DNA of 32,000 nt from Candidatus Saccharimonadota bacterium (GTDB lineage Bacteria > Patescibacteriota > Patescibacteriia > 2-12-FULL-60-25), in the NCBI GenBank assembly GCA_023898425.1, contig CP060222.1, forward strand, positions 600,001 to 632,000. The letters run 5' to 3'. Each line of letters starts with the position of its first letter. Position 1 is the stretch's first letter. The translations under genes and the position numbers were made by a program. Below are positions 5,367-27,151 of this stretch, piece by piece. The notes beneath the pieces were generated by a model. That model made no database searches, was not told where the DNA came from, and saw only the letters and a list, made by a program, of their open reading frames with translations.

Positions 5367-7627
5367 AGATCAATGTCATCAAACCTTACTCTATCCCCTT
5401 GCGTAAGCGTATGAGTCTTGGTTGGCTCTACTTCTCGTTTTACTGGATCACTTTTTTGCCCTGCATAAGCTGAGCTAGATGTTTGCTGAGCTTGTTCTTG
5501 TGGTTTTTTATTGCGACTACGACGTCTCTTTTTCTTTGCGTTCATTGCAGGCTTAGTAATCAACTCAGAAATAGCCTCGGTCATACCGGCGCGATCTTCG
5601 AGGGCGCTTTTACTCGTAACAATATCTTCACCTTTTGCTTTTTTAATAGCTGCTAAAAGATCGAGATCTTCATCTTCTTGATCAGCTTTTGGCACGATTT
5701 TTACTTGCGGCGCTGGTTGCTCTGAACGAATAATCCGTGGACGATTTGGTTGAGCTGATGCTGATGAGAACCCAGGTCGAACCTCATCTTCTTTGCGAAC
5801 AATTGCTGCGACTTTTTCGTCTGGCACTGCTGTACGTTTTACACTACGAATCATCCCCTGCTTTGACTTGCGTTCTTCGGCTACGATTGGACGGCAGTCC
5901 GTACAATAGATTGGGCGCGATGTATCAAGTTGAATAGCGAGATTAAAGACCTTGCCACAACGCGAACAGGTATGCGGAAAGTCAGGACGTTGTTTTTTGC
6001 CTTGTGCCTGTGGGATCGAGGCTTTAATTGCCTCTAATCGTTCTGGGCGAATCTTAAGGTATTCTGTTGTATCAACGTCACCAAGGTCTAGTGAACTCTC
6101 TTTTATTGATTGGGCGGGTACAAGCACTGCTCTATCGCTAACATTTGCATCATTAAGCGTTGGCTCTTCTGATGCGGTAACTGGTGGTAAAATAGATGTT
6201 GTATCCCCTGAAGGAATAATATCTGCTTGTTCGCCTTGTTTTTTCTTTTCTTCAAATTCGCGCACTGCTTGCTCTAGGGCAGCAGGGATAGGCGCCGCTT
6301 TAACAGGCGCATCTGGAGCCTGAGTATTTGCCTCCATGCCACTCCACTGAAGAACTTTCGCTTCAATAATATGACGCGGCTCTGCATAGCGCTCACGCGA
6401 AACAGCGATAACCTTTTCTTGATTGTCTGTTTTTGTTGCGATTGGCGCTAATGTATTTGCCGAAAAAGGTGGTGTTGCGACACCATCAACCATGAGCTTG
6501 AGATAGATCTGATATTTGGCCAAATTTACGAGATCTTCTGGCGTAAAGGTAGGTGCAAATTCTGTTTCCATGGCTGTTGCATCAGCGCCACCGACACGCA
6601 TCGCGATAATCGTACCGACGTTACCAAAAATAGCGGCAGCGACTTTTTCGTCGAGCTGCTCAATATACTGATGCGCAACCGTTAAATTTAAATGAAACTT
6701 ACGTGCCTCTGAAAGAATGCTCGCAAAAGACTCGTTCGCAAAATTCTGAAACTCATCTACGTAAAGATAAAAGTCTCGACGATCTTTTTCTGGTACATTT
6801 TGTCGTTCTTGTGCGGCGAGTTGGATTTTTGTCACCAACATCCCACCAAGTAAGCGCATATTATCTTCGCCAATACGGCCTTTGGCGAGGTTTACAATCA
6901 AAATCTTTCCGTCATCCATTACACGACGTAAATTTATTGTAGATTTTACCTGTGCAACAATATTACGAATAATTGATGAAGAAAGAAATTGTCCTACCTT
7001 GTTTTGTACCGGTGCAATTGCTTCTGTTGCGTATTTTTCTGACCATTGCGTAAACTCGGCTACCCAAAATGTTTTTACAATAGGATCTTTGATTTTTGTA
7101 ATAACACGAGCGCGGTAATCTTTATCGACAAGTAAACGGTTAATACCGAGTAATGTAGCACCTGGATAATCCAAAAGAGCGTGAATACAGTTGATAAGAA
7201 TGTATTCCATGCGAGGACTCCAAACATCAGGCCAAATCTTTTTAAAGACGCCCATTAAACCAGAAGCAATAAGATGCTTTTGGTCATCGTTTTCTGTTTC
7301 TAGAATATTAAATCCAATCGGAAAATCAACGTCCGCTGGATTAAAATAGATCACATCGTTAATGCGATGAGCCGGAATATAGTCTAAAAGCTTTTCTGCT
7401 GTATCGCCGTGCGGATCCACATAGCAACAACCATGACCGGCCATAATATCAGCTAAGACAAAGTTCTCTTGAAGCGTTGTCTTACCCATACCGGTTTTAC
7501 CGATAATATAAATATGACGACGTCTGTCGTCGGTTTTTATACCGAATTTGCGTTTTTGGTTACGAAAATTTGTCTCTGCAAAGAGCGTAATTTCGTTTTC
7601 GTGATCGTGGTTATATTCAGGTGCCAT
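5363..7627 (-). CDS. VirD4/TraG/TraD-like (FtsK-HerA superfamily) P-loop ATPase with C-terminal CxxC-x17-CxxC zinc ribbon and K/R-rich tail
   Basis: Walker A is IIGKTGMGKTT (about 7478-7507) and Walker B is FYLYVDEFQNF. No TM helix. CSRCGKVFNLAIQLDTSRPIYCTDC lies at about 5893-5972. The tail contains NAKKKRRRSRNKK. Confidence 0.75.
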   Translation of the reverse strand: MAPEYNHDHENEITLFAETNFRNQKRKFGIKTDDRRRHIYIIGKTGMGKTTLQENFVLADIMAGHGCCYVDPHGDTAEKLLDYIPAHRINDVIYFNPADVDFPIGFNILETENDDQKHLIASGLMGVFKKIWPDVWSPRMEYILINCIHALLDYPGATLLGINRLLVDKDYRARVITKIKDPIVKTFWVAEFTQWSEKYATEAIAPVQNKVGQFLSSSIIRNIVAQVKSTINLRRVMDDGKILIVNLAKGRIGEDNMRLLGGMLVTKIQLAAQERQNVPEKDRRDFYLYVDEFQNFANESFASILSEARKFHLNLTVAHQYIEQLDEKVAAAIFGNVGTIIAMRVGGADATAMETEFAPTFTPEDLVNLAKYQIYLKLMVDGVATPPFSANTLAPIATKTDNQEKVIAVSRERYAEPRHIIEAKVLQWSGMEANTQAPDAPVKAAPIPAALEQAVREFEEKKKQGEQADIIPSGDTTSILPPVTASEEPTLNDANVSDRAVLVPAQSIKESSLDLGDVDTTEYLKIRPERLEAIKASIPQAQGKKQRPDFPHTCSRCGKVFNLAIQLDTSRPIYCTDCRPIVAEERKSKQGMIRSVKRTAVPDEKVAAIVRKEDEVRPGFSSASAQPNRPRIIRSEQPAPQVKIVPKADQEDEDLDLLAAIKKAKGEDIVTSKSALEDRAGMTEAISELITKPAMNAKKKRRRSRNKKPQEQAQQTSSSAYAGQKSDPVKREVEPTKTHTLTQGDRVRFDDIDL

Positions 7628-9999: not shown

Positions 10000-12045
10000 T
10001 TAGGAACGCTTGTCGAGAAACAAGGCCGGATACTTCTTAAGTTTGGTGCTAATAGCATAGCGCATCAAGGTTCGTGTAACGACAACGGCCGTAAATAACG
10101 ACAAACCAATACCGATAGCAAGCGTAAACGCAAAGCCCTTGATGATAGATGATGAGAAGCCAAAGAGCACAACACAAGAAATAAGCACCGTTACATGACC
10201 ATCACGAATGGATGGCCAAGCACGACGAAACGCTTCTTCGAGCGCTTGAGGTAATGCCTTGCCAAGCTTTAATTCTTCTTTTAGACGTTCGAATTGCAAA
10301 ATGTTTGCATCTACCGCGATACCAATCGAGAGAATAAACCCAGCGATACCAGCGAGCGTCAACGTTACAGGAATTGCTTTAAAGGCGGTTGCATTGAGCG
10401 CTGCATAAAGTGCAAGCGCAATAACAGCCACAAGACCAGGGATGCGATACATCAAGATCATAAAGATTGCGACCAAGATAAAGCCCCAAAGGCCTGCGAT
10501 CAACGAAGCATTTACAGAATCGGCGCCTAGTGTCGCGCCAACGCTTTGCTGTGATACAAGCTCAACCGGTACTGGCAAGGCGCCCGCCTGCAAACGACGA
10601 GCAAGTGTTTTGGATTCTTCGATAGACATGCTGCCAGAAATAACCGCTCTACCACCAAAAATCTCCTGATTAACAACTGGCGTTGAAATTGGCTGACCAT
10701 CCAAGAAGATCGCGATTGGCTTACCAATATTAGCCTTTGTGAGCTCACCAAAAAGTTTTGCGCCTTCGTCATCAAACTGAAGCGCTACTTGTGGTTGACC
10801 TGTTTGCTGATCAAAGTCCACAACAGCAGACTGCAATTGCTTACCTGTGAGCTGTGTTGTCTTCCACTCTTCTGGTGCAGGCACAATATCTGTTGATTGT
10901 GATTTTTTTACCGAAATGATACGTACATTTGCCTTTTTCGAAGCACGCTCATCTTGCTTTAAGATAAGGTGAAAGCCAAAAGGAGACTCGACGACATCAG
11001 AAACGGTTCCTACCTCTTGTGAGAAGACCGTATTTTCGAAAGCTTCTACCATATCTCCTTTCGCAAACCATCCAAGCTCACCAGCGGTGCTTGAAGCGTT
11101 TGGTTCTACGGAGTTTTGACGTACAAGATCAGCAAAATTCTCTGGTGTAGCCTGAGATTTTAATTCATCGATCTTTTTACGTGCGTCTTCTTTTGAAACC
11201 GTTGATGTAAGACCGCCTTCATTACCTTGGTAGGTGATAAGAAGATGGCTTGCTTTTACTTCAGTGCCATTATCTGTAATGGACTCTACTTTAGCAATCG
11301 TATAAGAATCCTGTTGTTCAAAAACACGATCAATAACCGTACCAGGTTCTGCCGCGATAGCAGCAACACGGATCGCTTCATTAGGACCATCATTATAGTC
11401 AAAAGAAAGCTCGCCAAGATCCCCTGCCTTAGACTTAAGTGCAGCGGTTGTATTGTTTTCGCGAGCAAGCGCCTCAAAACTTGTTGGATCAGCTTTTGCT
11501 TTTACCAAGAGTTCGTCAATGCTTTTTCGTTCTTCTCCATTTTTTTGTATAAGCTGTTGCTTTTCTTCTTCGGTTAAATCACGAGGCTTTTCTGTGCTTT
11601 GCTCTTTAAACTCTAAAATCGGTGTCTCACCAATAAGTTTAATGGCATCGCGTACGTTATTTACGCCAGCGAGTTCAACTTGAACGCGCCAAGCGTCCCC
11701 TGCTTGTGTTACCTGAACCACTGGCTCAGAAACACCGAGGGTATTTACACGACGTTCGATAACGTCACGAACACCTGCCATTGCATCGCGGTGTTCACTT
11801 GGAGCGATTCTTGAAAGGTCTGCCTCATATTCGAGACTGGTACCACCTTGCAAATCAAGACCAAGCGCAAATTTTGAGCTAATCGTTGGTATCTTTGCAT
11901 GCGTTGCTTGATTAAAAGCAGTGATAAGTGAGTTCGCTGGGCCTGGATAGGCGTATGAGCCAGCGAGAACAAACAGCAAGACGAGCCAAAGCGTGCGTTG
12001 CACGATGGTCTTGCGAGAAAGGGTGTTATTTTTTGAGTGTTTCAT
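10000..12045 (-). CDS. secD: Protein translocase subunit SecD carrying an inserted tandem parvulin-type PPIase module in the periplasmic P1 domain
   Basis: SecD blocks LGLDLQGGT, IGETPILEFK, ...FLDGQPISTPVVNQEIFGGRAVISG...LQAGALPVP and the C-terminal TM bundle are present. Between LEFK and TQLTG there are about 230 extra residues, including ASHLLITY...GELGWFAKGDMVEAFENTVF...SPFGFHLILK (PpiC/parvulin signature). Confidence 0.85.
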   Translation of the reverse strand: MKHSKNNTLSRKTIVQRTLWLVLLFVLAGSYAYPGPANSLITAFNQATHAKIPTISSKFALGLDLQGGTSLEYEADLSRIAPSEHRDAMAGVRDVIERRVNTLGVSEPVVQVTQAGDAWRVQVELAGVNNVRDAIKLIGETPILEFKEQSTEKPRDLTEEEKQQLIQKNGEERKSIDELLVKAKADPTSFEALARENNTTAALKSKAGDLGELSFDYNDGPNEAIRVAAIAAEPGTVIDRVFEQQDSYTIAKVESITDNGTEVKASHLLITYQGNEGGLTSTVSKEDARKKIDELKSQATPENFADLVRQNSVEPNASSTAGELGWFAKGDMVEAFENTVFSQEVGTVSDVVESPFGFHLILKQDERASKKANVRIISVKKSQSTDIVPAPEEWKTTQLTGKQLQSAVVDFDQQTGQPQVALQFDDEGAKLFGELTKANIGKPIAIFLDGQPISTPVVNQEIFGGRAVISGSMSIEESKTLARRLQAGALPVPVELVSQQSVGATLGADSVNASLIAGLWGFILVAIFMILMYRIPGLVAVIALALYAALNATAFKAIPVTLTLAGIAGFILSIGIAVDANILQFERLKEELKLGKALPQALEEAFRRAWPSIRDGHVTVLISCVVLFGFSSSIIKGFAFTLAIGIGLSLFTAVVVTRTLMRYAISTKLKKYPALFLDKRS

Positions 12046-14488: not shown

Positions 14489-15295
14489 GTGCAACTCGTT
14501 TCTTCGCAATTTTCGATCGTCGAGAAGAAGGGTGACATCCCTCAACTCATCAAGCATATCGCTGATGCCGTCAGACGACGTAGGTTATACGATAAGTCCC
14601 CGATGGTTTCTGTCGTCTCTCCGTGGATCGAAGAAGCCTGTCTATTGCCCTGCGCAATCAAGATGATCTGTGACACGATCACCGAGTACGACTCACAAGA
14701 GAACACCGAAGACCGACTACGGAAAAGCGATGAACTGCTCGTCATTCAGGCACTGCATGATTGCAGTAAGCTTGATGAACATATTGGGCCAGTGCTCGTA
14801 AATGTACCCGATATTCTCGTTGCTGATATCAAAAATGGCACAGATGACTGGGGAGTGATTCAACAGCACCTCATGGAGAATTCCTCGGCTCGCTTCATCG
14901 TCTTGGCGAGCGGCAAAGAGATCGGAGTCCTTATGGAGATACATAATCGATTCTTGCCAATTCTACCAAGCAAGATCTACCGGGTATTTCATTGGCCTGA
15001 TCCTTTTCAACGCTCTGCTAGCGTAAAGCGTGATTATTTCATCCACTTTGTGAGCGAAAAGTCACCCGCCATTGCAGAAGTGATCCAAATGGATCCAGAA
15101 GCCTGTGCCTTGTTGCGCAGATCATTCAAGCAGCTTTCACTCGACGATACCTGGATCGAGTGTCTGCGAGCTCATGCTCACCGCTACGTAGAACGTGTCG
15201 AGCTCTTCAATGATGAGCATCCAACAAAGGTGCTCGAATCATATATGAAAGAACTTTGCAGAAAAAACCTGCGCAAAAAGACTAACGCTGCCTAG
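14489..15295 (+). CDS. Hypothetical protein (no family recognised)
   Basis: 268-aa ORF with a GTG start and AAAGGA 11 nt upstream. It has its own terminator. G+C is higher than the neighbours (32/60 at 14521-14580). Confidence 0.55.
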   Translation: MQLVSSQFSIVEKKGDIPQLIKHIADAVRRRRLYDKSPMVSVVSPWIEEACLLPCAIKMICDTITEYDSQENTEDRLRKSDELLVIQALHDCSKLDEHIGPVLVNVPDILVADIKNGTDDWGVIQQHLMENSSARFIVLASGKEIGVLMEIHNRFLPILPSKIYRVFHWPDPFQRSASVKRDYFIHFVSEKSPAIAEVIQMDPEACALLRRSFKQLSLDDTWIECLRAHAHRYVERVELFNDEHPTKVLESYMKELCRKNLRKKTNAA

Positions 15296-15303
15296 CGTTG
15301 GCC

Positions 15304-15353: not shown

Positions 15354-16277
15354 TTAGATTACAGGCTTCGCGATGTAATACAAATTTTTATCCTTTTTTA
15401 TCTTGTGGGGCGACTTAGGAAAGAGTAGCATCCCTTGCTCTGGCGCGCATTCATTTTCTCCATTGAGATAATGCCCGATGATTTGGCCTTTTTGCACAAG
15501 CTGCCATCCAGAATCCATCCCTTGAACATACTTAAAATAGCTATCTTTAGCCTGGATCGAATGCGTAAGTGTATAAAGTTGCTGAGAAACAGCCTCATGT
15601 ATTTTTATAGCCTCCCGCTCAAAGATACCGACGTGCTGTAAAGCGCGATTCATTTCTTGAACGATATCTATTACGCGACTAAGATCATCTTCTTTTCCTG
15701 TTTCATATCCAATAGCTACTCCTCCACATTGCTCTACATAAGCGTCTGTTGTTGCCCGATGTTTCAACCCTTCATCCATAGCGAGAACATTATATAAATC
15801 CATCAAAATATACTCTACGGGAAATATCTGAAAGATTTCTCTGTGCTTTGATGAATCATTTCCACAAACGATAAACGGAGGTGACTCAGCACTCGTCGCA
15901 TGGATATCAAAAACAAAATCTGCGCTAGCAAGTAATGGTGCCAACTCACGAGCACGCACCAAATCATATGGATCTTCTGTTGATGGTTCACGTTGAAGAT
16001 CTTCGTCAATAAAATAACGATTTAAATCACGTCCTTCTGTCGTTCCTCGTTGGCGTAATGCAATTGCTTTAGGATTTCCGAATATCAACAGAAGCTCACC
16101 TTTTATCTCTTTTGATACTTCGATACCTCGAGAACAATCCTCTATACCAAACGTATGTAAAAAATGTTTTACAACCTCAATACCCGTTAATTCATCTCCG
16201 TGAGTGCCACCGAGTATAGCTACCGATGGGCCTGGCTGAGTACCGATTATACGGCAACAAAATGATGGTATTTTCAT
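15354..16277 (-). CDS. Succinylglutamate desuccinylase/aspartoacylase (AstE/AspA) family Zn-amidohydrolase
   Basis: N-terminal VAILGGTHGDELTG (HxxE metal site) and a later FVFDIHAT histidine; 307 aa, the typical length for this family. Confidence 0.75.
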   Translation of the reverse strand: MKIPSFCCRIIGTQPGPSVAILGGTHGDELTGIEVVKHFLHTFGIEDCSRGIEVSKEIKGELLLIFGNPKAIALRQRGTTEGRDLNRYFIDEDLQREPSTEDPYDLVRARELAPLLASADFVFDIHATSAESPPFIVCGNDSSKHREIFQIFPVEYILMDLYNVLAMDEGLKHRATTDAYVEQCGGVAIGYETGKEDDLSRVIDIVQEMNRALQHVGIFEREAIKIHEAVSQQLYTLTHSIQAKDSYFKYVQGMDSGWQLVQKGQIIGHYLNGENECAPEQGMLLFPKSPHKIKKDKNLYYIAKPVI

Positions 16278-16285
16278 AAAAGAAT

Positions 16286-16315
16286 CTGAGAGTTAGAGAT
16301 TACTCTAACTCTCAG
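16286..16315 (-). other. 13-bp perfect intercistronic hairpin between the ligase and amidohydrolase genes
   Basis: ctgagagttagag atta ctctaactctcag. On the minus strand it is followed by auucuuuuAUG of the downstream gene. Confidence 0.6.
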
Positions 16316-16326
16316 TAGATAGCGAC

Positions 16327-17085
16327 TTAATACTTAAGAACAACCCTGTCGATTACAGATATCCATTGATGGATGCGCGACAAATCGTTAGTCATTCCAA
16401 ACATACGCAGTTCAACTGTACCGTGTTGGCTTATTCTTACTAGATGCCAACAGTTGCGTGGATTATTAACAAATCCCTGCTCGCACGCGACCTCAAAAAA
16501 GTGGTCTCGAGAAGTATATTGCGGTGGACTCCAATTTGGAGCCATCTGCCGATATAACCTCAATCGTTCACCTTGGCTATGATCTCCCATCTTAATAAAG
16601 TCTTCAAGACATTTAACGATGTTGTTATACATAGAGATAGCGTCATCTAGGTCTTTTGCGCCACGATGGATATGTATCCCCGCAACACGACAAGCGGCAC
16701 GAAGCATCTCTTTTGGTAGATGCTTTACGAGCTTTTTATATCGATTGTTATCCGGATAGATTTCAATAGACATATCCTCTTGTGCGACTTCTAAGGCTAC
16801 AATATCCGCACCCATTAACATAGCAGTACGGCGCGCCTGGGCATCAGCGATTTGAAGATTACTCAAAATCTTTGTGATCGAATGTTCAGGAGCTGTGCGA
16901 TGTTCTACCTGACATGCTGAGAGTTCATATGTCCACGCAGGATCCTGAACTCGTGCAAGAAATTCTTGCGAACGAGGCACCGGTATTCCATGAGCATCCG
17001 TTAGGAAAAACTCACGTTCTACGCCATATGCACCTGCAAGAACAGGATTGAACCGAAACTGAGAAAAGAACGATTGCTTATCCAT
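16327..17085 (-). CDS. Glutamate-cysteine ligase family 2 (GCS2/YbdK-like) carboxylate-amine ligase, short form
   Basis: YGVEREFFLTD, ELSACQVEHRT, AGIHIHRG and CWHLVRISQHGTVELRMFG match the GCS2 signature blocks. I prefer ATG at 17085 (GAGG ribosome-binding site 6 nt upstream). The longer ORF to 17199 would read through the T-box terminator. Confidence 0.7.
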   Translation of the reverse strand: MDKQSFFSQFRFNPVLAGAYGVEREFFLTDAHGIPVPRSQEFLARVQDPAWTYELSACQVEHRTAPEHSITKILSNLQIADAQARRTAMLMGADIVALEVAQEDMSIEIYPDNNRYKKLVKHLPKEMLRAACRVAGIHIHRGAKDLDDAISMYNNIVKCLEDFIKMGDHSQGERLRLYRQMAPNWSPPQYTSRDHFFEVACEQGFVNNPRNCWHLVRISQHGTVELRMFGMTNDLSRIHQWISVIDRVVLKY

Positions 17086-17120
17086 AGTAACCTCGCTGTA
17101 GTAAACCTCGGGTGTCCAAT

Positions 17121-17410
17121 AAAAACATCCCGTCCTCATGACGCCAAAAATATGACGTACATGAGGACGGGATGTTTTTAGCCCGTGGTACCACCTCAAT
17201 TATTTTTTAACTCAAAAAGAATTAAAACTTTTTAGAGACCTTTGATCTCATTCCCTGTGATGACGGTGGGTTTCCGGATTGTCACAAGAAGCAACAATCA
17301 CCTCTTCAAAGTCCAATTTCGTTTATCGCTATAATGGGGCTCACACTATCCCCCACTCGCTCGCCAGGGAGCGATAAATTACTACTTCTTTGAATTCAAA
17401 CGGTTTTCGT
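17121..17410 (-). promoter_or_regulatory. T-box riboswitch leader (tRNA-sensing transcription attenuator)
   Basis: On the minus strand, the Stem I lower helix is UUCAAAG (17394-17388) with CUUUGAA (17311-17305). The 5' loop is AAGUAGUA. The distal region AGCGAGUGGGGGAUAGUGUGAGCCCC resembles the glyQS Stem I distal motifs. The specifier loop is CGAAAUUGGA (17321-17312). The T-box sequence is AAUUGAGGUGGUACCACGGG (17201-17181). The terminator has 20-nt perfectly complementary arms (17179-17160 and 17140-17121) ending in U5. The T-box ACGGG and GAG can pair alternatively with CCCGU and CUC of the terminator 5' arm, forming the antiterminator. Confidence 0.8.
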
Positions 17411-17434
17411 TAAGATGGAAAGAACAATGTCTTG

Positions 17435-17463
17435 ATCATATTCAAACATACGAAACATGTCAA
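17435..17463 (-). promoter_or_regulatory. Sigma70-type promoter driving the T-box leader (TTGACA, 17 nt spacer, TATGAT)
   Basis: Minus strand reads TTGACA (17463-17458), tgtttcgtatgtttgaa, TATGAT (17440-17435). Confidence 0.6.
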
Positions 17464-17518
17464 AGTGACATATAGTTTTGTTTTCTTGACTCCCCTCTAT
17501 TACACTGCTCATTATCCT

Positions 17519-17926
17519 ATGAGCATCGTCCTAAAAGCCGGCATGGTCATCTATCGTAATAAAAACAATGTTAGAGAATTTTTGTTGATTTACAGAAAAA
17601 AGCATAGCGATTGGTCTTTTCCGAAAGGACATCTTGAAGACGGTGAAACAACACTACAAACAGCCATTAGAGAAGTCCGAGAAGAAACAGGCCTAGCTCC
17701 GATTATCATAAAGCGTTTAGAACCCCTACATTATACGAGTAGAAAACAAAAAGAGATCGCATTAGAAATGTTTTTAGCCATGTGTGACAGCGATGATTTC
17801 TCTGCCAAAACCGAAAGCGATGAAACACCTTCGTGGATACCAGAAAAAGATGTTTTCGCACGATTAACGCATGAGAATTTGAAACGCTATTTTCTAAATA
17901 CGATACTACCGAGCATAGACAGATAA
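17519..17926 (+). CDS. Nudix hydrolase
   Basis: Nudix box GHLEDGETTLQTAIREVREETGL is present. I prefer ATG at 17519, because the TTG-initiated extension from 17432 overlaps the divergent promoter. Confidence 0.8.
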   Translation: MSIVLKAGMVIYRNKNNVREFLLIYRKKHSDWSFPKGHLEDGETTLQTAIREVREETGLAPIIIKRLEPLHYTSRKQKEIALEMFLAMCDSDDFSAKTESDETPSWIPEKDVFARLTHENLKRYFLNTILPSIDR

Positions 17927-17988: not shown

Positions 17989-18567
17989 ATGTCAAAAAAG
18001 CCTAAAGAAACTACATCTGCACCTTTTCTTGTGGGTAAACGCCTCTACCTAAGAGCGCCCGAACCTGAAGATGCTGCGCTCTTTCAACGCGCCATCAGCG
18101 ACCCGTTCACTCGCCAATGGCTTTTGAACCGTTTTCCGATCAGTTTCAAGCAAGAGATCGAATTCATCGAGCGAATGAATCCCCCAGGCCAACCGCCAAC
18201 GCAGACCATCTTCTCGATCGTAATCAAGAAGAACCATCAGCTAATCGGTAATATGGGCCTCTTCCGTATCAATTGGCTGGATCGCAAAGCTGAAACCGCT
18301 GCTCTCATTATTTCGGACAAGTACCGAAGCAAGGGCTACGGCGTCGAAGCCAAAGAGCTCTTACTCGAATACGCATTCAACACGCTCGGCTTGCACCGCA
18401 TCGAGTCATGCGCGATGGCAGACAATATCCGCTCACTCGCCTACCTTCGTAAAAGCGGGTATGTAGAAGAAGGTGTGCAACGCGAAGCTATATTCAAAAA
18501 TGGCAGATGGACAGACCTCATCTGCTTCTCGATACTCAAAGAGGAGTGGAGGAGACGTCACCACTGA
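17989..18567 (+). CDS. GNAT family N-acetyltransferase (RimJ/RimL-like)
   Basis: 192 aa. IGNMGLFRINWLDRKAETAALI...YRSKGYGVEAKELLLEYAFNTLGLHRIES...N..S....RKSGYVEEG fits the Acetyltransf_3 pattern. Confidence 0.8.
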   Translation: MSKKPKETTSAPFLVGKRLYLRAPEPEDAALFQRAISDPFTRQWLLNRFPISFKQEIEFIERMNPPGQPPTQTIFSIVIKKNHQLIGNMGLFRINWLDRKAETAALIISDKYRSKGYGVEAKELLLEYAFNTLGLHRIESCAMADNIRSLAYLRKSGYVEEGVQREAIFKNGRWTDLICFSILKEEWRRRHH

Positions 18568-21396: not shown

Positions 21397-22098
21397 ATGA
21401 TCACAAACATGCGCTCGGCCCTACTTTGGGCTGGTCTCATCTCGACTCTCTTCATCTTCACCCTCGGCTGCGGCGACGGCATCGACCACATCGTGGACGG
21501 CGGCCCCTGCCAGAACACACCGTGGGTGTGCCCGGACGACTCCGGGATGGGTGGAGACAACAGCATCGATGGCGGAGACGTCGGCAACTGCACCCCAGTC
21601 GCCGAAGACACGTTCTCCTGTCTCACCGGAGTCGACAACGACTGCGATCAGCTGACCGGAGTCAACGACACCGACTGCGACGCACCGATGTGTCACCCGG
21701 GTGGTGCCTACGGTCCAGACATCCTTGATGGGATTCACGGGAACACCATGGACTACTGCTTCGACTTCTCGTGGTCGAACGATCTCACCACCGACATGAG
21801 TGGGACGATGGCCCAAGTGCTCAATCGACCGCAGATGTTCACCTGCTGTCGCGTAAGCGACGGTTTCTGCCCTGCAAGGTCGCTGTCTTACAGCAGTCCG
21901 ATTGAGCCAGGCCTAGAGCCCGGCGTAGAGTGGAATGATCAGACGGATTGTCCTCTTGGAGCCGAGGTTGGGCCCAATGGCGAACGCCTACTCGTCAATC
22001 GAGTTTGCGGGGTCTTCACCCGACTTCTCGATAGCGGGCTCATCGAGCGCGGCACCATCTCGGGCGATGCCCGCACGGTCACCGATAATTGTCAGTAA
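21397..22098 (+). CDS. Cys/Asp-rich lipoprotein encoded on a high-G+C islet
   Basis: Signal peptide with lipobox LFIFTLGC. There are 16 Cys after the lipobox and DNDCDQLTGVNDTDCD-type acidic Cys repeats. AAAGGA ribosome-binding site. Third codon positions are G/C-rich, unlike all neighbouring genes. Confidence 0.7.
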   Translation: MITNMRSALLWAGLISTLFIFTLGCGDGIDHIVDGGPCQNTPWVCPDDSGMGGDNSIDGGDVGNCTPVAEDTFSCLTGVDNDCDQLTGVNDTDCDAPMCHPGGAYGPDILDGIHGNTMDYCFDFSWSNDLTTDMSGTMAQVLNRPQMFTCCRVSDGFCPARSLSYSSPIEPGLEPGVEWNDQTDCPLGAEVGPNGERLLVNRVCGVFTRLLDSGLIERGTISGDARTVTDNCQ

Positions 22099-22120
22099 CC
22101 GACTACTGACGTCTATATGC

Positions 22121-22156
22121 AAGCCTCTGAACGCTCTACGTTCGGAGGCTTTTTTC
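22121..22156 (+). terminator. Intrinsic terminator after the lipoprotein gene
   Basis: aagcctctgaacg ctcta cgttcggaggctt followed by ttttt; 13-bp stem including one G-U pair. Confidence 0.8.
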
Positions 22157-22246
22157 ATACTGTTGGTTTTTATCCTACACTTCTCAAAGCCTTCCTTCAC
22201 CCTTCGCTCATACGGAGGAAGAAGGAGAGTTCAGTGCAACTAAAAA

Positions 22247-22270
22247 GAAGCCCTTACGGGCTTCTTTTTT
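22247..22270 (-). terminator. Intrinsic terminator immediately after the last giant-protein ORF
   Basis: gaagccc ttac gggcttc flanked by A5 and T6. It starts directly after the TAA at 22269-22271. Confidence 0.75.
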
Positions 22271-22664
22271 AGTTACCTGGCCTTAATTGTACAGCGCCTG
22301 GGTAAACAACCCACGGTCTAGCGGTTGGAGAGCCTGACACTATAGAACACTCGTTTCTAATAAATGCCGGCCCATCTTCATTTACATCGAGCAGTTCCCT
22401 TGTAAGATTGGTATTTAGTCGAACCTCACCCGTATCACTGACCTCCTCAGGATCTGGATTCGCACCAGCATAACAGCCGCCGTATGGATGCAGGATTTTA
22501 CTTGAAGAAACATCCCCAAGAACGCCATTAGTGTTATCAGCGCGACACTCACCCGTACACCATCCCCAATTATCCATTACCTGTAGACGAGGAGTGAAGT
22601 AACAGGAATTGGTGGTTGTATCGAAACATCCAGAGATATCCGTTACACCTGTTACCGATGCCAT
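22269..22664 (-). CDS. Cys-rich secreted protein gene, fragment 4 of 4 (frame-disrupted)
   Basis: The frame is open upstream to 22732, reading SFKTCTADSGCAAGDTCIAER before the listed Met. It continues fragment 3 after a +1 shift at the A4 run 22718-22721. Confidence 0.6.
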   Translation of the reverse strand: MASVTGVTDISGCFDTTTNSCYFTPRLQVMDNWGWCTGECRADNTNGVLGDVSSSKILHPYGGCYAGANPDPEEVSDTGEVRLNTNLTRELLDVNEDGPAFIRNECSIVSGSPTARPWVVYPGAVQLRPGN

Positions 22665-22701
22665 ACGCTCTGCGATACAAGTATCACCAGCGGCGCAGCC
22701 G

Positions 22702-22974
22702 CTATCTGCGGTACAAGTTTTGAAGGATTACGTGAGCAATATCCCCAGCTGCTATCTGACAAACCGGTAATTCATTAGGCTTTCTAGGCTCTCCAACCGG
22801 TGCCGGTCTCATGCTCTCATTACAGACATAGACATGCTGGAAGTCAAAGTAGTTTGAGTCACAGGCGTCTCGGCTATTGCCAAACATGGTACGCACGATA
22901 CATTTGTCATTTGGATAATCAGCACTCCCACATTCTGCATCGGCTGAACAGGTTTTTGTGGTTGATTTTGACAC
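22702..22974 (-). CDS. Cys-rich secreted protein gene, fragment 3 of 4 (frame-disrupted)
   Basis: Nominal start is GTG. The frame is open upstream (VNGCV...). It joins fragment 2 by a -1 shift at a coding-strand A4 (22966-22969) or A5 (22953-22957). Confidence 0.6.
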   Translation of the reverse strand: MSKSTTKTCSADAECGSADYPNDKCIVRTMFGNSRDACDSNYFDFQHVYVCNESMRPAPVGEPRKPNELPVCQIAAGDIAHVILQNLYRR

Positions 22975-23201
22975 ACACCCGTTGACTTACAAAGACCGGC
23001 ACCGGCAGGGCAGTCGCCGTCAGAATTACAGGTAAGACCAGAGGCGCGAACCTGATCTGAACATTCACTTTGAACGTTACAGTATGGCTTATGGTTTTTG
23101 AGTTTTGTGTCTGCGAGCTTGGTGCTTTGACCATCACCCCAATCAATATAGATACGTTTGAGTGGCATTTGATTGTGTGTTGCCCAAGCATAGAAACGCA
23201 T
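22809..23201 (-). CDS. Cys-rich secreted protein gene, fragment 2 of 4 (frame-disrupted)
   Basis: The frame is open upstream of its Met (AVKHQGPLNAGVGQFVAS-MRFYAWATHNQ...). It joins fragment 1 by a +1 shift at a coding-strand G4 (23238-23241). Confidence 0.6.
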   Translation of the reverse strand: MRFYAWATHNQMPLKRIYIDWGDGQSTKLADTKLKNHKPYCNVQSECSDQVRASGLTCNSDGDCPAGAGLCKSTGVCQNQPQKPVQPMQNVGVLIIQMTNVSCVPCLAIAETPVTQTTLTSSMSMSVMRA

Positions 23202-24294
23202 ACTTGCGACAAACTGTCCGACACCTGCATTGAGTGGCCCCTGATGTTTGACCGCTTAAGTTAAACGCATTAGTTTGTGCAACTTCGCATTGTCCAGGAA
23301 CAGCACAATTGCGTGTATCTGGGGCTGCAACCATTGGAGGTCTAGGCGTGTAATAGGTGATGTAGTTGAAGTTTTGGCTAGCAATAGCAGTAAAGCCCAA
23401 AAAGGATGGTGTGTAATGACCGAGTGTTACATCCGTAGGTAGCGGGACTGATGATCGTGGGTCAAGCGAAACGACTTTACCTGTGCCACCAATCTTATAG
23501 GAGACGAGCCCACAATATTCATCCGCTGGATTTGGACAGAGGTCGAGACGAGGATAATAGCCAATACCATGGGTACAGATATTATTGTCTTTGTCTGGAT
23601 CTGTAGAATTTGGGTCTCCGATAAGCGCATTATCTGGCGGTTTACAGTCTGAACTTGCTGCGCTGCTACCCGCTACGACACAATTAGCTGCCTCTCCTGA
23701 GCCTGAATAGGGGTTATTAAGAACGGCGCAACTATCGCCACCGACTTGGCAAAGGCTACCTTCTTGTAATCCACCCACGCATCTACCAAAATTTGAATCA
23801 CTTTGAGAGATTTGAGCGCATCTTTGGTTGCTTACTATATCTTCAACCGTGACCTGACAATCTGCAACTTCGTTACAAGAGACGTAATTACCATTGAGTG
23901 TACTTGGTCTCCCAGCTACCGGTTCTGCAATCGTGATGCCACTGTCACGAAATGCCTGAGTTAAGAGCGCGGTCCCCTCTGCGTCTCCTAATGTCCATCG
24001 ACAGAATTTTTCATTCACTAAAGGGTCTCTGCGTACACACGATGCAACAGGTCCTGGTATTGTAGCTGGATCTAGTGGGACATTCGCTACAGTCACACGT
24101 GTCACTATTAAACAATCATCTGATCCCCTCGTAGTAGGCTTACTACAATTGATCTGATAAGAACCTGCTCCATCACAGACAAAAGCTTTTTCATCTGACG
24201 CTGCACTCAATGTTAGTTGTTGAAGGCTTGATCCAGCATTTATTTTTGAATATCTACCGTTACCGTCTACCCTCCACTCTGAGAGATGATACAT
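23143..24294 (-). CDS. Cys-rich secreted protein gene, fragment 1 of 4 (true ATG start at 24294)
   Basis: The ATG is preceded in frame by TGA TAA ... TAG ... TAA. 383 aa, of which the last roughly 30 (ATQCRCRTVCRKYAFLCLGNTQS...) look out of frame. Confidence 0.65.
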   Translation of the reverse strand: MYHLSEWRVDGNGRYSKINAGSSLQQLTLSAASDEKAFVCDGAGSYQINCSKPTTRGSDDCLIVTRVTVANVPLDPATIPGPVASCVRRDPLVNEKFCRWTLGDAEGTALLTQAFRDSGITIAEPVAGRPSTLNGNYVSCNEVADCQVTVEDIVSNQRCAQISQSDSNFGRCVGGLQEGSLCQVGGDSCAVLNNPYSGSGEAANCVVAGSSAASSDCKPPDNALIGDPNSTDPDKDNNICTHGIGYYPRLDLCPNPADEYCGLVSYKIGGTGKVVSLDPRSSVPLPTDVTLGHYTPSFLGFTAIASQNFNYITYYTPRPPMVAAPDTRNCAVPGQCEVAQTNAFNLSGQTSGATQCRCRTVCRKYAFLCLGNTQSNATQTYLY

Positions 24295-24318
24295 TTATTT
24301 TTTGCGCTAAGGAGTTTA

Positions 24319-24984
24319 TCAGTCGTGACTGATTTTGCTACAAAAGCCTTTACACTCAAGGTCGTTAGAACAGCTTTGACCAGCGCCTGGCCCAACATAA
24401 CAGACCTTGTTACTTGCACGATCCGATGCTGTAAGCCCATTAGGGTCACATCGTCCATTAACGTCACAGTTATGACTACCTGTATTACAGTTTTTACCCT
24501 TAAATGGACCACTCAAACAGACTTTATCCGTAAGTGACACTTGAGCGCGGTGGAACTGATACACACGATAGACACGTGCAAACATATTGCTCAAGTACGC
24601 GTATTTATCTCGAGGAAACTGTGCATTTGAGTAATACGTTCTTAGACCAGACCGTAAGAAGGTTGGCGTTTTTAAGCCAGTAAAACCTGCCTCTTCGCCA
24701 CCATTTTGAAAGAGTGGCTCGATACCAGCAACGCCTGTATTGAGCGCGCTCGAGAATGGGGCATTCGTTTCTGAATAGGTAGCACCTGTAGCTGGATCAC
24801 GATAACCGGATTGTTTCCAAACACGATCTGTAAAGGCGGCATCAGAATTAGTATCTTTACTTTTTACTTCTGCTAACTCTCGGCAAATATCTGATGTGCC
24901 TACTTCTACATTCATATACATGTAGCGGTGATCGCCACCAGATTTACCGGCGCACGCAGAGGTCCAAAACCAACAAATGTCCAT
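24319..24984 (-). CDS. Giant Cys-rich surface protein, fragment 6 of 6 (C-terminal, frame-disrupted)
   Basis: Ends with the Cys knot-like GKNCNTGSHNCDVNGRCDPNG...CYVGPGAGQSCSNDLECKGFC, then TGA. It joins fragment 5 by a -1 shift, probably at a coding-strand T4 (24966-24969). Confidence 0.6.
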   Translation of the reverse strand: MDICWFWTSACAGKSGGDHRYMYMNVEVGTSDICRELAEVKSKDTNSDAAFTDRVWKQSGYRDPATGATYSETNAPFSSALNTGVAGIEPLFQNGGEEAGFTGLKTPTFLRSGLRTYYSNAQFPRDKYAYLSNMFARVYRVYQFHRAQVSLTDKVCLSGPFKGKNCNTGSHNCDVNGRCDPNGLTASDRASNKVCYVGPGAGQSCSNDLECKGFCSKISHD

Positions 24985-25277
24985 GTTCCATCAGGTTCAC
25001 CATTATTAATAATATTGCCTGTGACTGGATCTTTTGCTTGAGGTGATTGGAATACAGCACGAACCGTAAACCAAGGAGCTGAGCTATTTGTACAAGTATC
25101 ATCACTCGACAATGGATACTTGCGGATAAAGTCTAGTGATAGACCTTCGTTAAACGCATTAAACCCTGCTTTGCTATTATTTTGATAGTTTAGATCCCAT
25201 GATTTAAAGGCACATAAGCTATTTTCAAACTTTTCAATCGTTACTGGACCTATAGCATCTCTTTCATCACCACCCAC
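24912..25277 (-). CDS. Giant Cys-rich surface protein, fragment 5 of 6 (frame-disrupted)
   Basis: Nominal start is GTG. The frame is open upstream to the TAA at 25338-25340 (KLPTNLRENVYNYLYTTYDNV...). It is reached by a -1 shift at a coding-strand A5 (25335-25339) or A4 (25312-25315). Confidence 0.6.
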   Translation of the reverse strand: MGGDERDAIGPVTIEKFENSLCAFKSWDLNYQNNSKAGFNAFNEGLSLDFIRKYPLSSDDTCTNSSAPWFTVRAVFQSPQAKDPVTGNIINNGEPDGTWTFVGFGPLRAPVNLVAITATCI

Positions 25278-25915
25278 ATTATCATAAGTTGTATAAAGAT
25301 AATTGTAGACGTTTTCTCGTAAATTTGTTGGTAGTTTTTACCGCTAATTCTCTCTGGCTGTCTTTCTGCAAGACAATCTGAGAATTTCCATTGGTCTGTA
25401 ACAGAATCTCTTATCTCAACTTCATTTGCTCTCGTTAAGAAAGGATCAAAACGAGAATTCACATCGGTTCTCCATATGGATTCGCCAGCACTTAGAGAAG
25501 ACTGATCCTTATAATCAACTGATGGCACGTTATTGGCCCACTCGGCATTATAACCACAAGCCAAACGACCCACCTCACCGTTTACCGTAGGTTCAATCTT
25601 AAAGTACGAAATCGTATTATCTGTTATAGATGTCCTCATCGTATCAAGTGTTGGCGTATAACCAAGATCTCTCATTAATAGAGGTGTATGGATACGATAG
25701 AACGTTTCACGATAACCATCTCCCGCATCAACAAGACGCAATGATTCTGGTGATGTACCGCGTTCTTCTGGCACGGTGTAAGCGTCACTATAATCACATA
25801 ACTCATAGGATGGGTAGTCGAGCGTGCCATCAATAGAGATATATGGCGTTTTCTTTTTTTGCGACATTACGATAACCGCCTCTGCCTTTATCAACCCAGA
25901 TAGGGTCAAGATCAA
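25250..25915 (-). CDS. Giant Cys-rich surface protein, fragment 4 of 6 (frame-disrupted)
   Basis: Nominal start is TTG. The first roughly 17 residues are out-of-frame read of fragment 3. The plausible protein starts at ...KKKTPYISIDGTLDYPSYELC, after a +1 shift in a coding-strand A7 (25854-25860). Confidence 0.6.
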   Translation of the reverse strand: MILTLSGLIKAEAVIVMSQKKKTPYISIDGTLDYPSYELCDYSDAYTVPEERGTSPESLRLVDAGDGYRETFYRIHTPLLMRDLGYTPTLDTMRTSITDNTISYFKIEPTVNGEVGRLACGYNAEWANNVPSVDYKDQSSLSAGESIWRTDVNSRFDPFLTRANEVEIRDSVTDQWKFSDCLAERQPERISGKNYQQIYEKTSTIIFIQLMIMWVVMKEML

Positions 25916-26198
25916 TACGTTGCATCTTACCTACATAACTCGGCTTATCATCACCATCAAATTGATTCGCAAAGTGTACATCAGCTTCATTTTTATCACG
26001 ACTATCGTTACCACGACAATCACCAATATTTGCTTCGGTAAGCCCCACAGAAAATACACCAGTACCAGGAAAGAAGAAGTCCGTAATACCTGCCAACAAT
26101 CCTCCTGAGCATTCATTAGCAAACTTATCACGATAGGTCATCGGATCATTAGCTACAGCCCCATCGTTTTCATACCTTCTAAGGTGCTGAAAGGTCAA
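25830..26198 (-). CDS. Giant Cys-rich surface protein, fragment 3 of 6 (frame-disrupted)
   Basis: A nominal TTG start overlaps the TGA of fragment 2 (TTGA). The frame is open far upstream. It is reached by a -1 shift at a coding-strand A6 (26214-26219). Confidence 0.6.
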   Translation of the reverse strand: MTFQHLRRYENDGAVANDPMTYRDKFANECSGGLLAGITDFFFPGTGVFSVGLTEANIGDCRGNDSRDKNEADVHFANQFDGDDKPSYVGKMQRIDLDPIWVDKGRGGYRNVAKKENAIYLY

Positions 26199-27151
26199 AA
26201 TGGCTTTTGTTGGTTTTTTGCTGCAGAAGTACAGTAATATTGCCCAGAGTTTTGCGGAGGCACATATCCTGCCGTTGGCTGATAATGGAACGGATCCTTG
26301 TCACCAAAGAGAATTGGGTTTGGATTCCAGGTAAGACAAGGACGATTTGATTGATCTGTGCCAGCAAACTGCGTCGAATCACGTTCTAAACATTGACCAA
26401 AAACGCCCTTAATGATTTCGAGTTTTGAATAGGCAACGCATTGACTATTCGCTCCGCAGCTAAAGGCTGATTGCGCAGAAACAATACGGTTTGTAATATC
26501 TGACGCTCCCTCACCTTCGCTCACTGAGCCTTCGTTAAGACTGCTTGGGATACAAGCTTGTCCATCACGTTGACCTCCGCTACAAACGCCAGGAGGAACA
26601 TTTTGTGCACCAGGACCAAAGAAGCTTGATTTTGAACTATAGGTTACACGTTTATACGTACAACTACAGTCTTCACCGTATTCGCAAATATTGGCGTTTT
26701 CAAAACCAGACGCAATGAGCTTTGGCTGTGGTGGTTTATTCGAAAAATCCCACTCTTCTACATAGCTCGTGCCAAATGGCGAATCTGCTTCTGGATTAGA
26801 GCGACATTCAGCTGGAGGATAAGCGGTAGAAAGATTAGCATCTGACTTTGGATCATCTAATCTGAATTTATCAGCCACTTTTTCAAAGTTTGTAGAATCA
26901 TTTGTCGATTGAACAGGAAGATAGCAGTAGAACGTTGCGTTTATCTGACATTCACTCTTGTTATAAAAACCTGTAATCGTTCTACCTTCTTTTGTTGTGT
27001 ATCCACAAAGACTTAATAGCGGATTTGCAATCCCAATAGCGTCACCATCCAAAGGACGTGCAAATGAAATTGATGATGATGACGGCGCAACACAGCGGGT
27101 ACCTGCGGCATTTGGGCCGGTGCCTGCGACCATCTTCACCTTAGCTGCCAA
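26195..27151 (-). CDS. Giant Cys-rich surface protein, fragment 2 of 6 (frame-disrupted)
   Basis: Nominal start is TTG. The frame is open upstream to the TGA at 27203-27205 (TTAFYPDSANRFGLDYRL-AAKVKMVAGTG...). It is reached by a +1 shift somewhere in 27144-27202. Confidence 0.6.
   Translation of the reverse strand: MAAKVKMVAGTGPNAAGTRCVAPSSSSISFARPLDGDAIGIANPLLSLCGYTTKEGRTITGFYNKSECQINATFYCYLPVQSTNDSTNFEKVADKFRLDDPKSDANLSTAYPPAECRSNPEADSPFGTSYVEEWDFSNKPPQPKLIASGFENANICEYGEDCSCTYKRVTYSSKSSFFGPGAQNVPPGVCSGGQRDGQACIPSSLNEGSVSEGEGASDITNRIVSAQSAFSCGANSQCVAYSKLEIIKGVFGQCLERDSTQFAGTDQSNRPCLTWNPNPILFGDKDPFHYQPTAGYVPPQNSGQYYCTSAAKNQQKPF

Follow-up and report, generated by a model that had tools for sequence, protein, structure and literature searches.

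What is a T-box leader doing in front of two genes of which neither encodes an aminoacyl-tRNA synthetase (aaRS)? This question is raised by the minus strand of a 32,000-nt stretch of a Candidatus Saccharimonadota genome (assembly GCA_023898425.1, contig CP060222.1; the whole stretch is called the window here and all unprefixed coordinates refer to it), where a leader RNA precedes genes for a carboxylate-amine ligase of the GCS2 type and an amidohydrolase of the AstE/AspA type. T-box leaders (Rfam RF00230) read uncharged tRNA via a specifier codon followed by a purine and via pairing of UGGN with the NCCA end of the tRNA, and their usual cargo is aaRS genes, amino-acid biosynthesis genes or transporters. 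The analysis presented here indicates, with a probability of roughly 0.8, that the window operon is under the control of a transcription-attenuating T-box riboswitch specific for the tRNA of tryptophan (Trp), and that the cargo of this switch is the ligase and the hydrolase. An initial annotation, made from the sequence alone, had proposed a complete transcriptional T-box before this enzyme pair instead of a tRNA synthetase, and that proposal holds up, with a full-length match to RF00230 and the elements intact. What the present analysis establishes is the leader's anatomy, its covariation and the tRNA complementarity; the switching itself would follow from what is known of the T-box family.

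The leader can be followed from promoter to start codon as a series of elements, all on the minus strand:

17435-17463, minus strand: sigma-70-type promoter, TTGACA and TATGAT with a 17-nt spacer, 11/12 consensus matches, the sole strong site near the leader
17305-17394, minus strand: Stem I, with lower helix UUCAAAG/CUUUGAA, S-turn AGUA/GAA, AG bulge AGCGA and distal loop GGGGGAUAGUGUGAGCCCC (Rfam alignment and fold)
17312-17315, minus strand: specifier codon UGG (17315-17313) with its 3' purine A (17312); tryptophan, invariant in 28 leaders
17253-17299, minus strand: Stem II (17299-17277) and the Stem IIA/B pseudoknot region (17276-17253) (Rfam alignment)
17235-17249, minus strand: linker hairpin GAGAUC-AAA-GGUCUC, between IIA/B and Stem III (fold)
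17205-17227, minus strand: Stem III, with 5' flank AAAAG and 3' flank AA (Rfam alignment and fold)
17162-17201, minus strand: T-box sequence and antiterminator, with helix A1 UGAGG/CCUCA, helix A2 ACGGG/CCCGU and the 7-nt bulge UGGUACC (17193-17187)
17121-17179, minus strand: intrinsic terminator with perfect 20-nt arms, 6 bp more and U5 at its end (-44.8 kcal/mol, z -10.6)

Within Stem I the AGUAGUA motif occupies 17386-17380 and the AGCGA bulge 17361-17357, and 17336 is the last position of the distal loop GGGGGAUAGUGUGAGCCCC. In the specifier loop, CGAAAUUGGA, the UGG and A directly abut the CUUUG strand of the lower helix. The flanks of Stem III fit the RRRxG...AA motif described for T-boxes (PMC7583486). 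Positions 17201-17182 form the T-box sequence, AAUUGAGGUGGUACCACGGG, and with its 7-nt bulge the antiterminator folds at -10.3 kcal/mol. The terminator has six further pairs beyond one bulged U, and its U5 run is the end of the 3' arm itself. The 5' arm of the terminator overlaps the 3' strand of the antiterminator through the common segment CCCGUCCUCA, so the two folds are mutually exclusive. Translation of the ligase starts downstream of the terminator, with a ribosome-binding site GAGG at 17094-17091 and ATG at 17085. As a whole the leader folds at -105.1 kcal/mol (z -6.97), and no shuffled sequence folds as well. The promoter, the specifier loop adjoining the lower helix, the Stem III-like hairpin, the T-box sequence, the terminator whose 5' arm pairs alternatively with the T-box (both folds were computed) and the ligase start had all been named in the initial annotation and are all present. 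Its description of Stem I stands for the AGUAGUA, AGCGA and distal motifs, which can be read in the sequence; the K-turn-like base that it also described was not confirmed, the Rfam alignment deleting those positions.

The covariance model of RF00230 matches 17399 to 17160 of the minus strand over its entire length (model positions 1-219 of 219) with 73.2 bits; the E value is 7.5e-16 when 801 nt are searched and 6.1e-14 when 65 kb are searched. The match that the initial annotation had predicted is thus significant and full-length, though under the Rfam 15 gathering score of 93 bits, which is an annotation cut-off and not a structural feature. The locus was found again on six contigs from four sources (NCBI, JGI, Logan), and the exact ligase protein is also present on a metagenome-assembled genome (MAG) of Ca. 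Magasanikbacteria, GCA_020429715.1. Because the locus recurs in further assemblies, it is not an assembly artefact.

If the leader is a working T-box, then it should have relatives whose helices have been maintained. Orthologs of the ligase were collected from a scan of Genome Taxonomy Database (GTDB) species representatives, which gave 80 loci (numbered with the prefix L), all from Patescibacteria species. Motif and nhmmer-profile searches found a homologous T-box directly upstream of the ligase at 31 of these 80 loci, so the leader-plus-gene arrangement that the initial annotation had suggested looking for in related genomes does exist. Four leaders were overlooked by the exact core motif; L079 was recovered by a looser motif, and L068, L074 and L084 by the profiles. 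Covariation was counted on 23 related leaders over the named structure including the IIA/B pseudoknot. RNAalifold on these 23 sequences recovers Stem I, Stem II, IIA, the linker hairpin and the antiterminator with its bulge. Overall 94.1% of cells are paired, both sides change in 35 of 53 pairs, and none of 500 shuffles reaches any of five measures. When the 3' partner was slid by 1-3 columns as a control, only 39-52% remained paired. Double changes affect five of nine pairs in Stem II and all four pairs of the IIA/B pseudoknot, and the hairpin at the position of the linker hairpin (helix 8) and antiterminator helices A1 and A2 (helices 9 and 10) covary as well. A terminator with a U-run is found in all related leaders. 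The covariation that had been anticipated for orthologous loci is therefore in place for the short-form Stem I and for the antiterminator.

Two forms of Stem I occur among these leaders. The long Stem I of the window is common to L007, L009 and L013, and its lower helix covaries among the four (CAAAG/CUUUG, CCAGG/CCUGG, GCAGG/CCUGU). The AGUA, the AGCGA, the distal loop GGGGAYAGUGKRAGCCC and the sequence GAAAUUGGR are invariant in this group, and the AGCGA and distal loop of the window align to the AGAGA and distal loop of the RF00230 model. Support for the long Stem I is limited to what these four sequences give, the covariation in their lower helix. The distal platform of Stem I is absent from about 27 of the 31 related leaders (L051-L086, e.g., L056:3713-3958 and L076:3721-3958). 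These short forms consist of a 6-bp hairpin over a 5-nt 3' bulge that bears the UGG, with an extra closing helix, an extra hairpin and intrinsic terminators. Short-form relatives score 38-44 bits against RF00230, and with scores this far below the cut-off of 93 they would be missed by threshold-based annotation. The leader of L068 (3762-3975) keeps Stem I with a UUGGGG specifier, Stem II and IIA/B, has no UGGN core, and is followed by a plain terminator-like hairpin; it would be a T-box in decay or else one whose 3' domain has changed. At L076 a second T-box (5847-5950) precedes a protein that resembles a class II aaRS. If that reading of its N-terminal sequence is right, conventional cargo would occur in Patescibacteria too.

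The next question is which tRNA is read. The initial annotation had used the helix-adjacent specifier rule, which is the one in standard use (PMC7778990), to obtain UGG followed by A, and had kept the isoleucine (AUU) and leucine (UUG) registers as options. UGG followed by a purine is invariant in 28 leaders, while the base that precedes it is U in 22, C in four and A in two. This variable base removes the AUU register. UUG and CUG both encode leucine and the Rfam register puts UUG in the codon slot, and so an independent test was needed. Such a test is offered by the T-box bulge, which is UGGC in 19 of the 28 leaders and UGGU in nine. In the Patescibacteria loci the discriminator base is G73 in tRNA-Trp (10/10), A73 in tRNA-Leu (6/6), U73 in tRNA-Gly (3/3) and A73 in tRNA-Met, and all ten nearby tRNA-Trp genes have the anticodon CCA. 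Since only G73 pairs with UGGC, the specifier is that of tryptophan. The glycine register (GGA/GGG) was also considered and was rejected, as U73 cannot pair with UGGC. Both partners can be seen together in six genomes, with UGGC and G73 in L052, L059 and L070, and UGGU and a G73 wobble in L058, L072 and L077; the UGGU bulge of the window is the same as in the latter group. The expectation that one tRNA should match both specifier and bulge is thus borne out in six related genomes by tRNA-Trp (CCA, G73), and no such tRNA was seen in the window. With the invariant UGG and purine, the discriminator test and the Trp gene context pointing the same way, the predicted specifier of the T-box is Trp, the isoleucine and leucine options drop out, and at the level of sequence comparison the amino-acid question appears settled.

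The genes around the ligase also point to tryptophan. The trpS gene (TIGR00233, 267.6 bits, above cut-off) lies within 4 kb of the ligase in 24 of 80 loci and directly 3' of it on the same strand in three. tRNA-Trp genes are near the ligase in 10 loci and tryptophan 2,3-dioxygenase in four, and a TrpR-family repressor is encoded at five loci that have no T-box, directly upstream of the ligase in three of the five. At least one Trp-linked feature is present in 42/80 loci. The possibility that trpS is itself a co-regulated T-box target was rejected, as not one of the 19 trpS genes whose upstream sequence was long enough is preceded by a T-box. This suggests that in these genomes the Trp T-box goes with the ligase operon and not with the synthetase.

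Some further arrangements at these loci can be recorded. At L077 (3499-3937) the T-box is immediately preceded by the gene for the tRNA-Trp that it senses, and at L008 (3793-4001) a tRNA-Trp gene is directly upstream of the ligase with no T-box and may be co-transcribed with it. In T-box-less Parcubacteria loci (L017, L022, L024, L027-L029, L031, L032, L034-L036, L038, L039, L041, L042 and L048) a gene for a 460-aa GCS2 protein comes after the ligase; most have a class I glutamine amidotransferase (GATase) 5' of the ligase, and eight also have a GCS-like protein of about 310 aa with no Pfam match. These loci thereby contain up to three paralogous ligases and one amidotransferase/hydrolase, and a Trp-linked feature only in L034. 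Profile support for the neighbouring proteins of clusters c5 and c4 as paralogs of the ligase is weak (E 0.003 and 0.03). Many third-party annotation (TPA) MAG records that carry the locus (L008, L010, L011, L014, L017 and others) are titled 'uncultured Gammaproteobacteria' or 'Candidatus Saccharibacteria', labels that look unreliable.

If the switch responds to tRNA-Trp, what does it switch on? The operon downstream of the leader contains the following features:

16327-17085, minus strand: 252-aa carboxylate-amine ligase with the GCS2/YbdK/glutamine-synthetase fold (Pfam GCS2, Amidoligase_2)
16286-16315, minus strand: hairpin of 13 bp with AUUCUUUUAU behind it, inside the 49-nt ligase-hydrolase spacer (terminator-like scan)
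15354-16277, minus strand: 307-aa AstE/AspA-family zinc amidohydrolase (PF24827, 74.7 bits, cut-off 25)
15258-15299, minus strand: two terminator-like hairpins after the hydrolase gene, the probable end of the operon (terminator-like scan)

The assignment of the first gene to the GCS2-type ligases agrees with a Pfam GCS2 match of 31.5 bits (cut-off 21), a match to Amidoligase_2, and an AlphaFold (AF2) model built from 33 homologs (pLDDT 96.8) for which the best Foldseek match is E. coli YbdK (PDB 1r8g; TM 0.78, E 2e-10, 16% identity), followed by plant glutamate-cysteine ligase (GCL) and glutamine synthetases. The residues E23, E25, E54, E61, R63, H140, E225 and R227 (ExE, E, H and ExR motifs) are invariant in the 33 homologs. 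The protein scores below the NCBIfam cut-offs, with 55 bits against 176.4 for TIGR02050 and about 50 against 330-410 bits for the GCL equivalogs, and a search of the PDB with the ligase profile found YbdK only (E 2e-4), with no characterised close relative. Judged by these comparisons, the ligase is a separate subfamily and not an ortholog of YbdK or of glutamate-cysteine ligase. What it shares with E. coli YbdK, the other GCS2 ligases and the glutamate-cysteine ligases is the fold and the acidic, His and Arg motifs for Mg-ATP/acyl-phosphate chemistry; it differs from YbdK in being about 120 residues shorter (252 vs 372 aa). More than 300 homologs of about 250 aa were found, all of those with a named source being Patescibacteria, and the subfamily is compact, with 171 clusters at 50% identity (E<=1e-30, in a library of 1.84 billion representatives). 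One representative, P0165 (432 aa), carries a C-terminal GNAT acetyltransferase fusion (PF00583, E 3e-15), which may be a clue to the chemistry of the ligase. Apparent ligase-hydrolase fusions in L010 and L050 were discarded as artefacts of overlapping open reading frames (ORFs) in another frame.

The second gene was likewise correctly placed in the AstE/AspA family. Beyond the PF24827 match, its closest solved relatives are mammalian aspartoacylase (ASPA; E 2e-13) and aspartoacylase-2/aminoacylase 3 (AA3; E 2e-6), and its GGTHGDE, DLNR, DIHAT and GYETG motifs align with ASPA at the H-E-H zinc ligands and the catalytic Glu. The scores remain under the equivalog cut-offs (57.1 vs 180 bits for NF002601, 33.6 vs 305 bits for TIGR03242), and by these scores the protein is not an ortholog of characterised aspartoacylase or AstE. 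Members of this family cleave N-acyl-Asp/Glu, N-acetyl aromatic amino acids or, in the case of CphZ, beta-Asp-Arg isopeptides (PMC9974463). ASPA, aminoacylase 3, AstE and CphZ have in common with the window hydrolase the PF24827 catalytic domain, the zinc ligands and the catalytic Glu. However, the window hydrolase is paired with a ligase, and elsewhere its place is taken by GGCT, GATase1 or M20 proteins. This exchange became visible when the neighbours at the 80 loci were clustered and the clusters named by Pfam and NCBIfam. The gene downstream of the ligase is, by number of loci:

AstE/AspA-like: 24 loci
GGCT/AIG2-like: 6 loci
class I GATase / peptidase C26: 3 loci
M20 ArgE/DapE-type deacylase: 1 locus, with 4 more nearby

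All four partner families are hydrolases of N-acyl or gamma-glutamyl amides. Such analogous replacement of the partner suggests that the second step is simple, namely that an amide of a kind the ligase could make is cleaved to free an amine or amino acid. The intergenic hairpin may act as a partial terminator and so reduce hydrolase expression relative to that of the ligase, or it may stabilise the mRNA.

Put together, these observations suggest the following mechanism. Transcription would begin at the TTGACA/TATGAT promoter, and the UGG specifier in Stem I would pair with the CCA anticodon of tRNA-Trp. When the tRNA is uncharged, its 3' GCCA end could pair with the UGGU bulge through a U-G73 wobble and stabilise the antiterminator, and RNA polymerase would then read into the ligase and hydrolase genes. 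With charged tRNA the -44.8 kcal/mol terminator would form instead. Scarcity of Trp turns genes on through a T-box and through a TrpR-type repressor alike. Amino-acid biosynthesis is lacking in Patescibacteria (PMC11665869). Induction at Trp scarcity by T-box or TrpR in organisms without amino-acid biosynthesis suggests that the module raises Trp availability, and the purpose of the operon would accordingly be to increase the supply of Trp to tryptophanyl-tRNA synthetase (TrpRS) in an organism unable to make amino acids. The ligase would form an ATP-driven amide conjugate of the gamma-glutamyl-Trp, N-acyl-Trp or Trp-Glu/Asp type, and the partner hydrolase would free Trp from this conjugate, giving a cycle of capture, buffering and release. 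The suggestion in the initial annotation of a salvage or release module is plausible in this light, and the Trp-themed neighbourhood and the interchangeable hydrolases appear to strengthen it. The specific chemistry, conjugation and release of an acyl-Trp or gamma-glutamyl-Trp type, is a tentative proposal that is possible but doubtful. Somewhat more doubtful is the fuller idea that such a cycle, in which the ligase traps Trp (e.g., as gamma-glutamyl-Trp) and the hydrolase hands it to TrpRS, is the phylum's T-box/TrpR-controlled response to uncharged tRNA-Trp, in place of trpS, a transporter or a biosynthetic operon.

Several observations weigh against the reading of the leader as a Trp-specific switch, and they have to be set beside two other explanations of the RNA. 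A default Rfam scan of the leader reported no match, because the score of 73.2 bits is under the curated cut-off. The kink-turn (K-turn) at the base of Stem I is not evident, as six K-turn positions are deleted in the Rfam alignment and the candidate UGA is UGU in L007, the nearest relative. The terminal G.U wobble of helix A2 acts as a steric sensor in studied T-boxes (PMC7583486), but the pair is A-U in the window (17186/17167) and is A-U in 12, G-C in eight and G.U in three of the 23 relatives (columns 276/315). The uridine of this pair is kept in 15 of the 23, and the G.U, though conserved in studied T-boxes, is not required for membership. The low score and the A-U pair could mean that the leader is a decaying or non-switching relic, i.e., a constitutive terminator or a mere 5' untranslated region, and the same could be said of a terminator that is very strong relative to the antiterminator (-44.8 vs -10.3 kcal/mol) and of the loss of the UGGN core in L068. 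However, T-boxes normally set a strong terminator against an antiterminator that the tRNA stabilises, the functional elements of the leader are all intact, and compensatory changes keep all helices, including the antiterminator, in 23 diverged relatives. Helices maintained by compensatory change indicate purifying selection on the switch, and a relic is considered very unlikely. As to specificity, the window has no tRNA gene, so its own tRNA-Trp was not seen, and its UGGU bulge taken by itself is compatible with an A73 tRNA too. A T-box reading the tRNA of Leu (UUG), Ile (AUU) or Gly (GGA/GGG) would therefore be the competing view. Leu has the most to be said for it: the Rfam alignment makes the A before the helix an insertion, which leaves UUG in the consensus codon slot, U and C before UGG would be synonymous (UUG/CUG), the window UGGU would pair with A73, and in four Uhrbacteria loci the ligase has a tRNA-Leu(UAA) gene close downstream (L021:4857-4944, L023:822-908, L026:1923-2009 and L030:4873-4959). 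This synteny is the sole context evidence that leans to Leu, and the four cases are one lineage with conserved, probably lineage-specific, gene order, whereas the wider neighbourhood is Trp-themed (trpS, tRNA-Trp, TrpR). In addition, the A before UGG in two leaders would give AUG, and the UGGC bulge of the 19 leaders, among them the long-form L013, cannot pair with the A73 of Leu or the U73 of Gly; for Ile, AUU is not conserved. Another tRNA as the ligand is scarcely credible.

Even with a real Trp-specific T-box, its signal might stand as a proxy for general amino-acid starvation and the enzymes might act on substrates unrelated to Trp, for example in a gamma-glutamyl peptide or thiol pathway. 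About 38 of the 80 loci, mostly Parcubacteria-type operons with c5, GATase1, the ligase and the 460-aa GCS2 protein, are without any Trp-linked feature, and the ligase there stands with two GCS2-like paralogs and GATase1 in a set that resembles a small-peptide pathway; the known chemistry of the GCS2 family, moreover, joins Glu and Cys. Other points also count against a module dedicated to Trp. The ligase contains four Trp residues in 252 and is thus not Trp-poor, a count that made Trp depletion uninformative as a starvation signature of the induced proteins, and that idea was dropped. The hairpin with a U-run between the two genes could uncouple ligase from hydrolase, and a co-induced ligase and hydrolase look like a futile cycle, with no enzyme in the operon to modify the intermediate; a cycle of capture and release does not fully account for this joint induction. 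Against a proxy role, however, T-box, TrpR, trpS and tRNA-Trp are four independent links to Trp in different lineages and arrangements, and chance would put trpS within 4 kb in fewer than one of 80 loci (a rough estimate for genomes of about 1000 genes), so that this explanation is judged unlikely. The operon could also serve as a defence against tryptophan analogues or TrpRS inhibitors, with the ligase modifying the compound and the hydrolase processing it or reversing the modification. T-box-induced resistance genes for TrpRS inhibitors are known in other bacteria, and the induction logic fits, as such compounds mimic starvation and lead to more uncharged tRNA-Trp; the fusion of one family member to a GNAT acetyltransferase, a common drug-modifying fold, would fit as well. 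However, no resistance-type genes or transporters are conserved with the operon, the hydrolase would undo the modification, and a broad, vertical distribution in an auxotrophic phylum fits nutrition better, which makes defence a very improbable function. A Trp-specific, transcription-attenuating T-box with the ligase and the hydrolase as cargo remains the preferred reading.

How this system relates to known ones can be stated for the RNA and for the enzymes separately. The leader shares with the class I transcriptional T-boxes of Firmicutes (e.g., the B. subtilis trpS, tyrS and rtpA-ycbK (Trp) leaders) the long Stem I with S-turn, specifier and purine, AG bulge and distal loop, as well as Stem II, IIA/B, Stem III, the bulge UGGNACC, the competing terminator and antiterminator and the logic of being on when the tRNA is uncharged, and with known Trp T-boxes it shares the UGG specifier. 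It differs in its host, a member of the Patescibacteria or Candidate Phyla Radiation (CPR), in the sub-cut-off score, the terminal A-U of A2 and the K-turn that is not evident, and in a cargo that is neither aaRS, biosynthetic enzyme nor transporter while trpS is without a leader. The platform-less relatives (about 27 of 31) are closer to the short-Stem-I ileS T-boxes of Actinobacteria, which are translational (Sherwood 2015; structures reviewed in PMC7583486). As in these, the specifier sits in a small bulge on the 3' side, and Stem II, the IIA/B pseudoknot and the discriminator come after it. The platform-less relatives end in intrinsic terminators with U-runs, however, and are thus transcriptional, not sequestrators of the ribosome-binding site, and after Stem I they have an additional hairpin, besides an additional closing helix. 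The window leader itself is a long form. For the enzymes, ligase/hydrolase pairs that use gamma-glutamyl groups include PuuA/PuuD, gamma-glutamylanilide synthetase/hydrolase, BtrJ/BtrG and Meister's gamma-glutamyl cycle. What these have in common with the window pair is a gene for an ATP-dependent ligase of the glutamine synthetase/GCS type beside one for a gamma-glutamyl-amide hydrolase or cyclotransferase. The PuuA/PuuD-type pairs belong to catabolic or antibiotic pathways with intervening modifying enzymes, whereas the window pair stands alone under a predicted tRNA-Trp switch.

Elsewhere in the window, the genes upstream of the T-box promoter are divergent and encode a NUDIX protein (17432-17926, plus strand) and a separate GNAT protein (17989-18567, plus strand). 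On the minus strand, 10000-12045 encodes a SecD fused to a peptidyl-prolyl isomerase domain of the PpiC type, which lies internally (Rotamase_3, E 3e-31), and four related loci (cluster c14) have this 720-aa SecD-PpiC architecture too. At 5363-7627 there is a gene for a 754-aa TrwB-like coupling protein. The region 21397-31994 contains eight consecutive ORFs with no significant Pfam match, including one for a 1617-aa protein (27141-31994, minus strand) whose sole match is a sub-threshold one to a carbohydrate-binding domain.

A search of the full-text literature found no T-boxes described in Patescibacteria, CPR or Parcubacteria and none before a carboxylate-amine ligase or an AstE/AspA enzyme, although absence there is no proof of novelty; the earlier remark that this cargo had not been described for T-boxes agrees with that search. 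The leader RNA belongs to the class I transcriptional T-boxes, and what is new is the cargo and the phylum. The T-box family is thereby extended into the Candidate Phyla Radiation, where members under the Rfam cut-off escape standard annotation, and long and platform-less Stem I are found to coexist in one orthologous context, both with transcriptional read-outs. On amino-acid supply and budgeting in the ultrasmall CPR auxotrophs, an RNA sensor with a known input, uncharged tRNA-Trp, here points at an uncharacterised enzyme pair. The linkage to Trp provides the first functional handle on a widespread family that is labelled 'hypothetical' or 'glutamate-cysteine ligase family'. If the proposed conjugation and release of Trp is true, it would mean a new enzyme function for about 170 protein clusters and would show bacteria to have a working analogue of the gamma-glutamyl cycle, a scheme of amino-acid uptake that has long been debated.

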